Assembly: GCA_012517155.1 (NCBI GenBank)
Contig: JAAYVN010000041.1
Location: 10,556-74,555 of the forward strand
Direction of reading: 5' to 3'
DNA length: 64,000 bases
DNA from: Ignavibacteriales bacterium
Lineage (GTDB): Bacteria; Bacteroidota; Ignavibacteria; Ignavibacteriales; Ignavibacteriaceae
Shown here: piece after piece, positions 1-60,014 of the stretch
Layout: every line of letters starts with the position of its first letter
Position numbering within the stretch: the stretch's first letter is position 1
Notes under the pieces: generated by a model
What the model was told of the DNA's origin: nothing
Seen by the model: only the letters and a program-made list of their open reading frames with translations
The model's database searches: none
Position numbers and translations under genes: made by a program

Positions 1-263
1 AAAACATTGATTTTCCCACGTTTAAAAAATTTGAAACCAATTTTATCCCGGATACATGTGATTTGAAGCACTAATAAATAAGTTAATTAAAAAATACCTG
101 AATATAATATCCTTAAATCGGTTAGGGTATAGCCTTACTTGCTATGAAAGAAAATATCAAATTATGCAAAAAAAAAACGGTTCTTTTAATAACATTTTCC
201 TTTACTCCAGATTTTTCAACTTTTTCCTAATTCCAGCCCCTTCATCCCCCTCTCCCTTCGATA

Positions 264-319
264 TGAATACGTAGTGAATACGTACTGAATACGTACTAAA
301 GCCGTGGTGAATACGTACT
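264..319. repeat. Four copies of the 11-12 nt motif TGAATACGTA(C/G)T with a palindromic TACGTA core. Three are tandem at 264-297 and one is at 308-319.
   Basis: Read directly: tgaatacgtag / tgaatacgtac / tgaatacgtact, then gtgaatacgtact. The reverse complement of the same 12-mer occurs at 59560-59571. Confidence 0.8.
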
Positions 320-367
320 AAATTCGATCAGAATATCTTTTTACTCCCCTCTCACCCCTTATACAAT

Positions 368-478
368 TAACGAAAAAAGCCCTGATCTCTCAAGGCTCTT
401 AATTTTACTAGCGGGGCCGACAAGACTTCCCGATCCTCGGGACGACCTCCTGCTCCCTATTCTAGCACTAAGCCTTAC
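368..478 (-). repeat. Repeat unit A: terminator-like hairpin plus a pseudo-copy of the tRNA-Asp 3' half
   Basis: About 110 nt, near-identical to 821-929. Positions 411-453 match the 3' part of the tRNA-Asp at 976-1050 (gcggggccgac.agact ... gacctcctgc), but the T-arm is replaced by the hairpin cccgatcctcggg. Confidence 0.85.
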
Positions 479-560
479 TAAACGAAAAAAGCCCTGATCT
501 CTCAAGGCTCTTAATTTTCTGCGGGGCAGACGAGACTTCCCGATCCTCGGGACGACCTCC
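479..560 (-). repeat. Repeat unit B, truncated at GACCTCC where the GIY-YIG gene begins
   Basis: Same sequence as units A and C from aacgaaaaaagccctgatctctcaaggctcttaatttt through gacgacctcc. It ends at 560, which overlaps the stop codon (cta, 560-562) of the ORF at 560..799. Confidence 0.85.
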
Positions 561-799
561 TATTTTTTCAGTGACTCTATGTAGGATCTACTTTTTTTCC
601 TCTTAATCTCATTTTCTCTTTTCATTGCATCACTTTTTGAAGAAAATTCTTCAAAGTACACTATTTCCCAATCATTGGCTTGCGACGTAAATCGTGTCGT
701 ACCACTGTTATGTCGAAAAATCCTCATTTCCAGGTTTTCTGTGTGCCCCACATAATACTTGTCCACAGATATTGAGTAAATGACATATGTATAGAACAT
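560..799 (-). CDS. Small stand-alone GIY-YIG (URI-domain) nuclease family protein
   Basis: 79-aa ORF. The N-terminus YTYVIYS...KYYVGHTENLEMRIFRHN fits the GIY-(X10)-YIG ... R ... H/N pattern. The gene is flanked by direct repeat units B and C. Confidence 0.8.
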   Translation of the reverse strand: MFYTYVIYSISVDKYYVGHTENLEMRIFRHNSGTTRFTSQANDWEIVYFEEFSSKSDAMKRENEIKRKKSRSYIESLKK

Positions 800-820
800 T
801 ATTCGAACTTTCTCATGTAA

Positions 821-929
821 TAACGAAAAAAGCCCTGATCTCTCAAGGCTCTTAATTTTCTGCGGGGCCGACGAGACTTCCCGATCCTCGGGACGACCTC
901 CTGCTCCCTATTCTAGCACTAAGCCTTAC
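821..929 (-). repeat. Repeat unit C: terminator-like hairpin plus a pseudo-copy of the tRNA-Asp 3' half
   Basis: Near-identical to 368-478. The tRNA-homologous segment is 862-904. Confidence 0.85.
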
Positions 930-935
930 TAAACG

Positions 936-961
936 AAAAAAGCCTCGAAAATCTTCAAGGC
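936..961 (-). terminator. Rho-independent terminator downstream of tRNA-Asp
   Basis: Hairpin gcctcgaa-aatc-ttcaaggc (942-961, one mismatch), followed on the minus strand by a T6 run (936-941). Confidence 0.65.
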
Positions 962-975
962 TTTCTTTTTACTAG

Positions 976-1050
976 CGGGGCCGACGAGACTCGAACTCGC
1001 GACCTCCTGCGTGACAGGCAGGCGTTCTAACCAAACTGAACTACGACCCC
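976..1050 (-). tRNA. tRNA-Asp (anticodon GTC)
   Basis: The reverse complement folds as a 75-nt cloverleaf: GGGGTCG TA GTTC AGTTTGGTTA GAAC G CCTGC CTGTCAC GCAGG AGGTC GCGAG TTCGAGT CTCGT CGGCCCC G. CCA is not encoded. Confidence 0.95.
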
Positions 1051-1292
1051 GTATAAAATACTAAATTAACTCTTGATTTTCTCGAAATTGTCGGGACTTT
1101 CAAACTAGAATTAAATACTACTCTAAAAAGTTAATTTCATAAATTTAGCCTACAAAGATAATACTTTTTCTCTTTTCTGTCAAATTCTTTTTCGAATTTT
1201 TTTATTTCTTTTTTAATTCCTTTTTTATATTTTAATTCCTGGATTTTGGTTCTTTGTTCGAAATTTATAGGTTTTTTCTAAAATAAATTAAA

Positions 1293-1853
1293 ATGCTCAA
1301 ATCAGAAAGACTGTCAAAGGATTTCTTTACAACTTTTATGGCTTCCGGCTCTCTGAATCAGGAACCTCCCCTCTCTATTACCCTTTGTAGTAATACCTCT
1401 CTTCTGAAACTCATTCATGACGATATGAAATCTGTCTATCCGGATAACAGAGTGGTTTTCGCAATAAAGGATGCAAGGAACTTTCTTTTTAAGATAGATG
1501 AGGATCTGCTGAGAATTTTTTTTGTAGGTTTTCTTAAGCTAATGGAAACTGTTGATTCGAATCATTTTTCTATTGCATTTTCTTCTTCAGTCATTAAGGA
1601 AAACCTGCTATTCTCATTCCATTTTCCGCTTAAACTGAACGAGCATATCATAAGTCTTTTAAATACCAAAAAGCTGATTATAATGGACAACTCGGATAAA
1701 TCCCTTTTTTCTTCTTTTTTTGTTTCCGGTTTGAACATCTTAGAAAAGCATTTCGGAATGAAATTTACTCTGGCTGAAGACCTGACTAGTATTGTTTTTT
1801 CCTTTCCTGTAAAAAATCACATGATTGATGACGGTCACATCACTCTGGATTAA
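1293..1853 (+). CDS. Hypothetical protein, possibly a degenerate stand-alone GHKL/HATPase-like domain
   Basis: 186-aa ORF, 41 nt upstream of the caspase operon. The C-terminal GLNILEKHFGMKFTL...IVFSFPV loosely resembles the end of a histidine-kinase ATPase domain. No H-box or signal peptide. Confidence 0.45.
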   Translation: MLKSERLSKDFFTTFMASGSLNQEPPLSITLCSNTSLLKLIHDDMKSVYPDNRVVFAIKDARNFLFKIDEDLLRIFFVGFLKLMETVDSNHFSIAFSSSVIKENLLFSFHFPLKLNEHIISLLNTKKLIIMDNSDKSLFSSFFVSGLNILEKHFGMKFTLAEDLTSIVFSFPVKNHMIDDGHITLD

Positions 1854-59278: not shown

Positions 59279-60014
59279 AATAACTCCTAAAATTATCAAA
59301 AAATATGGAAAATAAATACAAATTTTACATTATAAAGAAAATAATAACGATGACTAAGATAACTTTTTTCAGGAAAACTTTAAAATAAAAACTGAGTGGG
59401 AAGACCTGAAAAATTTATTATATATTATTAGCCGAAGGTTAAAAACTAAATAGTGAATAAGTAATTACGCTTCGCTTTCATTAATTGGTAATTTGGTTGT
59501 CGAGACCTTTTTTCGAGGGGGGATTACCAAACCGTGGCGGAGGATTCGCACGAATAAGAAGTACGTATTCACTGGCATGGATGAGGCAACTTAGGGGCAA
59601 GGTATAGGGTAATAAGATTGGAAGGTCAATTCGCTTCGTTTAAAACAAAAAAGTAATCCCGACATCCGGTGTGTCCTCAAAATTCGACAAATGGCAGGAT
59701 ACTGCCATCCTTGATCTGTGATTCACTCCCCCATCGGGATAGATTAAACTCTCATGAAAATTTTCATTCATCCCAAAAAACATCTCAGCCTCTTTTTACC
59801 CTTCCCTCCTGCCTCTTCACCCAAATATGAAAAACGCTGTTATTAGCTCATTTTCGCAGTTTGACAAAATATACTTAATTTTGACATTTTGTACATAAAG
59901 CCGGTCTTAAGCCCCTTTAACTATCTCAACAAGATAAAATAAAACAACCCTGTTCAGAGTTATCCATTTTGATATTTTGTGGCTAAATACTTTTTTAATT
60001 TAGCTAATAAAAAT

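Follow-up and report, generated by a model that had tools for sequence, protein, structure and literature searches.

Genes for small GIY-YIG nucleases that reside beside tRNA genes on bacterial chromosomes are the subject of this study, which starts from the tRNA-Asp locus of an Ignavibacteriales bacterium (GenBank assembly GCA_012517155.1). The locus lies near the start of a 64,000-nucleotide (nt) stretch of contig JAAYVN010000041.1 (positions 10,556 to 74,555, forward strand), hereafter called the window. There, a gene encoding a 79-amino-acid (aa) stand-alone GIY-YIG protein is found downstream of an intact tRNA-Asp gene, among three repeat units each carrying a partial copy of the tRNA (pseudo-tRNA) with a hairpin in place of the T-arm. 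With moderate confidence, we consider that the whole is best explained as a tRNA-gene-resident GIY-YIG mini-cassette, selfish-looking and encoding a nuclease that acts on the hairpin. A literature search, largely confined to journals outside subscription, turned up no paper on bacterial chromosomal mini GIY-YIG cassettes linked to tRNAs.

One of the closest described systems is SegB of bacteriophage T4, a free-standing GIY-YIG homing endonuclease encoded in the T4 tRNA gene cluster (PMC2330249). The cassette resembles SegB in the GIY-YIG fold and in having a free-standing gene that lies among tRNA genes and not in an intron, and the likeness may extend to selfish, non-reciprocal inheritance together with the flanking tRNA region (PMC2330249). 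However, SegB is a multi-domain, site-specific phage enzyme, whereas the 79-aa protein consists of the catalytic domain only and is encoded on a bacterial chromosome; SegB loci lack the duplicated tRNA fragment, the hairpin, and the tandem arrays; and the tRNA gene in the window shows no sequence change from cassette-free alleles that could give immunity.

The second comparison is with mobile open reading frames (mORFs) of fungal mitochondria, known from atp6 of Allomyces macrogynus and from atp6, atp9, cox2, and nad3 of Glomus (PMC3630166). Here an endonuclease open reading frame (ORF), of the GIY-YIG type in atp9, is situated between the functional gene and a displaced leftover of its 3' end (PMC3630166), and it is because of this position that an essential gene survives the insertion. 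An arrangement of the mORF type, namely tRNA, terminator, ORF, and pseudo-tRNA 3' piece, is found in our case as well. Yet the hosts of mORFs are protein-coding genes whose inserted end diverges at synonymous sites, whereas the duplicate in the window comes from a tRNA and is identical; only in the cassette is the leftover broken by a conserved hairpin; and mORFs do not form tandem arrays of ORF-bearing and ORF-less units, unlike the cassette family.

Two further groups show partial likeness. Proteins of the UPF0213/YhbQ type (COG2827) agree with the 79-aa protein in being of single-domain size and in having the motifs Y..Y.G, R, HN, and E; we know of no report of mobility or tRNA linkage for the structurally characterized UPF0213 proteins 1YWL and 1ZG2. 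The REP/RAYT elements and integron attC sites are similar in their short palindromes with conserved stems, dispersed or clustered, which are plausibly recognized in the folded single-stranded form by a small dedicated enzyme, and in their cassette-like arrays. However, where those systems use an HUH transposase or a tyrosine recombinase, the enzyme considered here is a GIY-YIG nuclease; its hairpins lie within sequence derived from tRNAs, and the enzyme–hairpin link is only correlative (rho 0.43).

Structure of the tRNA-Asp locus

The tRNA-Asp gene, the three repeat units, the terminators, the T-arm hairpin, and the GIY-YIG ORF reported in the initial annotation are all present where it had placed them. 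The order on the minus strand is tRNA-Asp, terminator T0, unit C, a 21-nt leader with the ORF, unit B, and unit A:

976–1050, minus strand: intact tRNA-Asp(GTC) gene (Rfam RF00005 tRNA, 68.9 bits, E 1.4e-14, full model; ARAGORN 975–1050)
936–966, minus strand: terminator T0 directly 3' of tRNA-Asp, GCCTTGAAGATTTTCGAGGC plus a T run (sequence reading)
821–929, minus strand: unit C, without ORF; 29-nt leader, pseudo-tRNA-Asp 862–904, hairpin 879–893, terminator 828–853
800–820, minus strand: 21-nt leader between the unit C terminator and the GIY-YIG ORF
560–799, minus strand: gene for the 79-aa stand-alone GIY-YIG (UPF0213-type) nuclease (Pfam PF01541 match)
479–561, minus strand: unit B; truncated pseudo-tRNA-Asp 521–561, hairpin 538–552, terminator 487–512
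365–478, minus strand: unit A, without ORF, the most distal; pseudo-tRNA-Asp 411–453, hairpin 428–442, terminator about 375–400

The units are nearly identical in alignments (99% identity over 81 nt between units B and C, 99% over 83 nt between A and C), and T0 is related to their terminators but distinct from them. Read on the minus strand, a unit consists of GCAGGAGGTC, GTCCCGAGGATCGGGAAGT, CTCGTCGGCCCCGC, and the terminator hairpin, with only AGGAGGTC as the first block in unit B; the GCAGGAGGTC block corresponds to the variable-loop region of the tRNA, and the CTCGTCGGCCCCGC block, to the 3' strand of the T-stem together with the acceptor strand. Two stretches, of 10 and 14 nt, match the tRNA, and in unit C they do so exactly. 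The genome assembly comprises 3.29 Mb in 160 contigs (99.65% completeness, 40 tRNA calls); as the 14-mer CTCGTCGGCCCCGC occurs in it only twice, both times at the tRNA-Asp locus, and AGGAGGTCGTCCCGA occurs genome-wide only at units A, B, and C, the match to tRNA-Asp is better than expected by chance, contrary to one objection foreseen in the initial annotation.

In all three units, the 12-nt T-arm segment GCGAGTTCGAGT is swapped for one and the same 19-nt sequence, within which TCCCGA-GGA-TCGGGA makes up a perfect hairpin (plus strand 428–442, 538–552, 879–893). Terminators were predicted by a scan at 853–828 and 512–487, with a third copy at about 400–375, and both the hairpin and the terminator are formed in the predicted RNA fold of unit C (z = -1.95). 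In the Rfam E-value scan of window positions 1–1400, the tRNA was the single match, all others having E > 1. The 3' junction of unit A, CCCCGC-TAGTAAAA, is the same as that after the real tRNA-Asp, while units B and C have CCCCGC-AGAAAA instead.

The ORF had been described as inserted exactly at the homology boundary, and this holds in part. It does abut the truncated unit B, whose homology begins at AGGAGGTC and ends at 561/562, with the stop codon (560–562) overlapping its last two bases. However, the ORF-bearing segment of about 261 nt stands in place of a 29-nt segment of units A and C; we are dealing with a replacement and not with a clean insertion. Nor is the ORF a later insert into a pre-existing repeat, since elsewhere it is a regular component of the unit (e.g., in the five 315-nt units of the related genome G002); units A and C would be better read as ORF-less derivatives. 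Simple internal deletion of the local ORF-bearing unit was considered as their source but found no support, as their 29-nt leader matches neither end of the local ORF. The leader shows a weak resemblance both to the D-arm region of the tRNA and to other Asp-lineage ORFs at their 3' coding ends.

No promoter-like site was seen upstream of the ORF in the terminator/promoter scan, and therefore the ORF is probably expressed by read-through from the tRNA promoter; two terminators lie in between.

Just past unit A, 11-nt boxes TGAATACGTA(C/G)T are iterated (window 264–335), and other iterated boxes (GTATGGAG...) occupy the equivalent place after tRNA-Asp in two relatives (loci L061 of G052 and L080 of G001).

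The GIY-YIG protein

The 79-aa protein matches Pfam PF01541 with E 5.4e-17 and 62.3 bits (cut-off 22.6), its residues 1–71 covering positions 1–74 of the 78-position profile. It has the residues Y5, Y16, G18, R26, H30, N31, and E62, all of them shared by 96–100% of 77 homologues (93–100% if K66 is included in the set); with the catalytic residues so conserved, the nuclease looks active. The only sequence matches in PDB are the UPF0213 proteins 1YWL (EF2693) and 1ZG2 (BH0048), at E of about 6e-5, and both the size and the single domain fit the UPF0213/YhbQ (COG2827) type (79 aa; about 80–110 aa in this class). The catalytic domain spans the whole protein without a DNA-binding module, unlike in Seg or I-TevI-like homing enzymes. 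No NCBIfam equivalog was found for the protein, the group I intron endonuclease model TIGR01453 yielded 13.5 bits, far below its cut-off of 56, and, as regards defence or phage origin, there was no match to a PADLOC defence model or to a PHROG.

The UPF0213 family is related to the structure-specific nuclease Slx1. From this kinship we infer that the 79-aa protein may have a structure-specific, Slx1-like activity.

Cassettes at other tRNA genes of the same genome

The search for further units and for tRNA-linked GIY-YIG paralogues proposed in the initial annotation was productive in this genome and in related ones. The genome encodes about eight GIY-YIG paralogues, and all those uncut by contig ends are located directly downstream of a same-strand tRNA: tRNA-Asp (window), tRNA-Asn (contig C115), and initiator tRNA-Met (C92, continuing in C68). 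More copies lie beside tRNA-Gly(UCC), where contigs C41 and C38 end. The layout of the paralogues is the ORF, a short tRNA homology, a palindrome replacing part of the tRNA, and the remainder of the tRNA 3' end, with a terminator copy as the last element in the case of Asp, Asn, and Met. The palindrome takes the place of half the anticodon arm in the Asn cassette (TCCCGA-AAGAGT-TCGGGA) and of the whole anticodon arm in the Gly cassette (TCCCGA-CCAG-TCGGGA), and sits inside the T loop in the Met cassette (TACGACGCGTCGTA).

ORF-less forms are found at two more tRNAs. Contig C13 (positions 1–470) opens within the 3' end of tRNA-Lys(UUU), which is followed by six 72-nt units without an ORF, each composed of AGGTCGGCGGTT, TCCCGA-TAC/TGC-TCGGGA, CGCTCAC, and a terminator; the array has a higher-order, two-unit periodicity, which argues for unequal recombination, and the assembly yielded no GIY-YIG gene linked to tRNA-Lys. 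After tRNA-Pro(UGG), an ORF-less two-hairpin pseudo-tRNA-Pro relic (C96:20120–20260; TCATCGCG, TCCCGATGGAATCGGGA, AGGTCGCAGGTT, TCCGACTCAGTCGG) has the same two-hairpin architecture as the ORF-bearing tRNA-Pro(CGG) cassette of another family (L022). At least six out of about 41 tRNA loci of the genome are occupied now or were occupied formerly.

Pseudo-tRNA pieces with the TCCCGA hairpin also occur upstream of intact tRNAs. At C92:9679–9735, a pseudo 5' fragment of a CAU-anticodon tRNA stands ahead of the initiator tRNA-Met, and on the minus strand of C41, at about 228–290, a pseudo-tRNA-Gly with the anticodon arm replaced stands ahead of tRNA-Gly(UCC).

A non-tRNA target of the same nuclease family was observed as well. 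At C145:1–560, a GIY-YIG ORF is located between the arms of a 12-bp inverted repeat (CCCCGTGAAATA ... TATTTCACGGGG), and an ORF at L050:1300–1620 in G002 is likewise bracketed (CCCCGTCAAATA ... TATTTGACGGGG). In both cases the ORF, placed in the "loop" of a long hairpin, splits a gene between NIA and EGY of a NIA-EGY motif; the split gene has, by eye only, the look of a four-helix bundle of the 23S rRNA intervening-sequence type.

Distribution and phylogeny in related genomes

We surveyed 41 genomes from the same family and order, the homologue loci being taken as the best one per genome (n = 29). GIY-YIG homologues are present in 36 out of 41 genomes, many of them as perfect tandem arrays. 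The best homologue is situated 5–114 nt from a same-strand tRNA in 24 out of 29 genomes, the other five being located at contig ends or close to them. Of the 24 tRNA-adjacent loci, 21 have the tRNA upstream of the ORF and three have it downstream; these three are all tRNA-Ser loci and represent a mirror form (pseudo-tRNA 5' pieces with hairpins, ORF, tRNA). Stop codons occur in roughly a tenth of the listed homologue copies, a pseudogene share to be expected of a selfish gene.

In G002, tRNA-Asp is followed by an array of five ORF-bearing units of 315 nt, and in G029, tRNA-Asn is followed by one of five 382-nt units. The array of G009 has three to four units of 421 nt, and G023 carries two arrays, one with five units of 384 nt behind tRNA-Val and the other with two units of 338 nt behind tRNA-Ser. 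In ORF-bearing units, the ORF is followed by the pseudo-tRNA, in which a perfect palindrome rich in GC replaces or interrupts the anticodon arm, the T loop, or the D loop; the tRNA segments shared by the pseudo-tRNA and the intact tRNA are identical. The internal pseudo-tRNA pieces precede the terminator or leader of the cassette itself, and the last one, a different flank (the native terminator in G023). The most distal pseudo-tRNA is also the most tRNA-like, e.g., CACGCAGGAGGT in the last unit of G002 vs. CACTCAGGAGGTC in the internal ones.

A scan of named genomes revealed homologues with 35–60% identity in Ignavibacteriota, Bacteroidota (Flavobacterium, Mariniflexile, Algoriphagus, Barnesiella, Saprospiraceae, Chitinophagales), Balneolota, Nitrospirota, and Patescibacteria. 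They adjoin tRNAs for Val, Ala, Met, Arg, Pro, Lys, Asn, Asp, Cys, and Leu, and the cassettes that have not decayed carry a TCCCGA-type hairpin in register with the replaced arm.

The initial annotation concluded from the common T-arm substitution that the copies derive from one another and not independently from the tRNA, and the relatives bear this out. The tRNA-Asp cassettes of G002, G007, G015, and G031 (another family) have the pseudo-tRNA design of the window, with the hairpin loop alone differing, so that the substitution common to the Asp lineage can be written as AGGAGGTC-GTCCCGA-loop-TCGGGAAGT-CTCGTCGGCCCCGC. Being identical in Asp cassettes of other genera and of another family, it has been inherited with the cassette lineage. 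In the protein tree, which is based on few columns and has low resolution, the supported clades (Asp, two Asn clades, Met, Cys, and Pro) track the tRNA identity across genera and families, and cross-phylum homologues (55–60% identity) are as close to the window protein as the within-family ones. In three genomes, the T stem of the pseudo-tRNA-Asn matches the local tRNA-Asn variant (GCAAG/CTTGC, GCAGG/CCTGC, GTAAG/CTTAC, respectively), which fits a local origin of the leftover or ongoing gene conversion.

Hairpin-substituted pseudo-tRNAs are taken by ARAGORN for real tRNAs, since the hairpin loop mimics an anticodon loop. Examples are five "tRNA-Val(tac)" calls in a Bacteroidetes metagenome-assembled genome (MAG; L090:756–1453) and one "tRNA-Thr(tgt)" call in a Bacteroidales MAG (L099:1731–1804).

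Turnover at tRNA-Asp loci

We inspected tRNA-Asp loci in 30 related genera, the comparison thus being at the genus level or above. About 15 loci are empty (tRNA, terminator, unrelated DNA), five contain the ORF with a pseudo-tRNA (including the array of five 315-nt units in G002), three contain decayed ORFs, and four are ORF-less relics with a pseudo-tRNA and hairpin (G020, G012, G011, where the hairpin is elsewhere, and G049, with a decayed, nearly full-length pseudo-tRNA). Invasion, decay, loss, and relics, together with horizontal spread, are the pattern that a selfish element produces.

The initial annotation saw here a nuclease-associated cassette that targets or duplicates the 3' half of a tRNA gene. 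Duplication agrees with the 24 out of 29 relatives in which the homologue adjoins a tRNA and is flanked by its partial copy; targeting does not agree with the fact that tRNA-Asp beside the window cassette is 100% identical to tRNA-Asp of the cassette-free genome G052. The same fact bears on classical homing, in which the GIY-YIG enzyme would cut cassette-free tRNA genes and repair would copy in the ORF with a replacement tRNA end. Such homing would suit a fold known from homing endonucleases, of which SegB is encoded in a tRNA cluster (PMC2330249), the mORF-like layout with a replacement gene end and a leftover (PMC3630166), the presence/absence polymorphism at tRNA-Asp, and the nuclease clades that track tRNA identity. 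But with tRNA-Asp identical to that of G052 there is no target-site immunity, and the essential copy of the host would be cut as well; moreover, the 79-aa protein is a catalytic domain without a DNA-binding module whose closest solved relatives are UPF0213 proteins and not homing enzymes, and a hairpin conserved across unrelated tRNA targets is left unexplained. We therefore regard classical homing as unlikely; the nuclease of the selfish cassette probably does not cleave intact tRNA genes in this manner.

The TCCCGA hairpin

Around an unchanging TCCCGA/TCGGGA stem, the loop ranges in length from 3 to 7 nt. This hairpin is found in the Asp, Asn, Gly, Ala, Pro, Val, Arg, and Met contexts and marks pseudo-tRNAs in Ignavibacteriota, Bacteroidota, Balneolota, Nitrospirota, and Patescibacteria; the related stems TCCGGC, TCCGAC, TCCCGC, and TCCGCC are perfectly complementary as well. 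In the 41 genomes, the hairpin pattern occurs 547 times, compared to 43 occurrences of the reversed control (a 13-fold excess), and the hairpin count correlates with the GIY-YIG copy number (Spearman 0.43, p = 0.005). As the stem is fixed while the loop varies, and variable spacing ill suits a dimer on duplex DNA, the data fit recognition of the folded stem-loop, which could take place in single-stranded or cruciform DNA or in RNA.

Among the GC-rich perfect hairpins of the Ignavibacteriales genome, TCC is by far the commonest outer triplet. Clusters of TCC...GGA palindromes (TCCGACTCAGTCGGA, TCCGCCTGCGGCGGA, TCCGTTAGCTAACGGA) are seen in short repetitive intergenic DNA and at many contig ends (e.g., C57:22752–22802, C77:1081–1129, C91:1850–1931, and C132:3784–3906). 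A structure in the window itself (59656–59740), located some 300 nt downstream from tRNA-Arg(ACG), has an outer stem, ATCCCGA ... TCGGGAT, that contains the cassette hairpin stem and encloses about 71 nt with a second hairpin; no flanking pseudo-tRNA-Arg and no ORF were seen there.

Proposed mechanism and alternatives

Taking all this into account, we are fairly confident that the locus belongs to a selfish family of tRNA-resident GIY-YIG cassettes which has ORF-less derivatives and expands and contracts by homologous recombination. The basic unit would comprise the 3' part of the tRNA, a terminator, the small nuclease ORF, and a pseudo-tRNA with one arm replaced by a TCC...GGA hairpin. Since a part of the tRNA is duplicated, the intact tRNA-Asp stays and the hairpin-marked leftover is located beyond the ORF; the window would then represent a state in which unit B alone bears an ORF, units A and C being its ORF-less derivative companions. 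Judging by the anatomy of the arrays, these may lengthen and shorten through unequal homologous recombination that involves the repeated segments formed by the tRNA 3' end and the terminator: a crossover of the tRNA 3' segment of the intact gene with that of a pseudo-tRNA would yield an array, and the reciprocal product would be a precise loss. The distribution and phylogeny suggest that, on an evolutionary time scale, a given tRNA acquires cassettes which then decay and disappear, and that cassettes may move between phyla, with the near-universal tRNA sequence serving as a portable homology arm.

More tentatively, and with somewhat less than an even chance in our estimate, the nuclease acts on the folded hairpin or on pseudo-tRNA DNA and thereby stimulates recombination. 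We infer that the 79-aa protein could recognize the folded hairpin of the pseudo-tRNA and nick or cut it, producing recombinogenic ends that would lead to amplification and conversion; ORF-less hairpin units would be non-autonomous copies served in trans. A bolder reading, which we consider doubtful, is that the TCC...GGA hairpin and the structure-directed, Slx1-like nuclease of about 80 aa constitute a new prokaryotic mobile system, recognizing a fold over a long sequence. The nuclease would then amplify and transplant cassettes living in tRNA genes and occasionally in other genes, and ORF-less units, perhaps together with the genome-wide TCC...GGA palindromes, would be its non-autonomous passengers, as REP are for RAYT.

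Several observations weigh against the hairpin-acting cassette. The correlation between hairpin and GIY-YIG counts is moderate only (0.43), and G012 has 30 hairpins with no GIY-YIG gene detected. The TCCCGA hairpin also serves as an ordinary terminator, e.g., after tRNA-Cys on C33, and is part of a genome-wide family of TCC...GGA palindromes (82 out of 564 GC-rich perfect hairpins). A fixed cutting ruler from the start of the pseudo-tRNA to the hairpin was rejected, as this distance varies from 8 to 23 nt (read manually; the automated alignment over-extended pseudo-tRNA starts and was used for the hairpin list only). Finally, no synteny of tRNA-Asp flanks between genera was detected within 1.5 kb, and hence nothing but the tRNA itself makes the "empty" and "filled" loci orthologous.

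Some of these observations would be accommodated if the repeats were passive, i.e., tandem duplications of the tRNA 3' end and terminator that were later invaded by an unconnected family of miniature palindromes, with the GIY-YIG gene as a hitchhiker that has a different role and contributes nothing to the spread. The dispersal of TCC...GGA palindromes outside tRNA contexts, the ORF-less arrays, and the many hairpins of G012 in which no GIY-YIG gene was detected agree with such a history, and unequal crossover can by itself build arrays. It has little explanation, however, for a design of ORF, pseudo-tRNA, and hairpin that recurs at more than 10 tRNA species in five phyla, for hairpins that replace arms in register and are enriched in pseudo-tRNAs far beyond the small total length of pseudo-tRNA DNA, or for the co-inheritance of nuclease clade, junction position, and hairpin type, and we assign it a low probability.

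A selfish cassette may also be contrasted with a module beneficial to the host, in which the nuclease and decoy tRNA ends guard tRNA genes from integrating elements, or the nuclease processes or quality-controls the tRNA transcript. The constant position within the tRNA transcription unit on the same strand, the duplication of exactly the 3' segment used by integrases, and the persistence across the whole order are in line with this. On the other hand, no PADLOC defence model matches, the module is distributed patchily and is missing at many tRNA-Asp loci, there are frequent pseudogenes and relics, the copy number is variable, with arrays of identical genes, and some family members split a protein-coding gene, making a beneficial module very improbable. 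As for relics of att duplication that repeated rounds of integration and excision would have left at the 3' end of tRNA-Asp, they are effectively refuted, in agreement with the initial annotation: tRNA 3' ends are classical att sites and short boxes are iterated at 264–335, but no integrase-like ORF of at least 90 aa was seen in 10.5 kb downstream (by eye, no profile search) or in the first 4 kb of the window, the repeat spacing is short (110–340 nt), arm replacement is not a product of att duplication, and the same design with the GIY-YIG gene is present at many tRNAs.

Implications

If the proposed selfish, hairpin-acting cassette is real, one of the smallest known nuclease genes persists inside essential, ultra-conserved tRNA genes in at least five bacterial phyla, the trick being to duplicate a part of the tRNA and to mark the leftover with a hairpin, a combination that we have not found described. 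Practical consequences concern genome analysis: the cassettes break assemblies at tRNA loci, several copies in the Ignavibacteriales genome being at contig ends, and they are an annotation hazard, giving rise to false tRNAs with wrong anticodons. A hairpin-directed mini-nuclease, if confirmed, would also be of interest as a molecular tool. The large uncharacterized UPF0213/COG2827 family would gain a biological role and, in the TCCCGA hairpin, a testable substrate.

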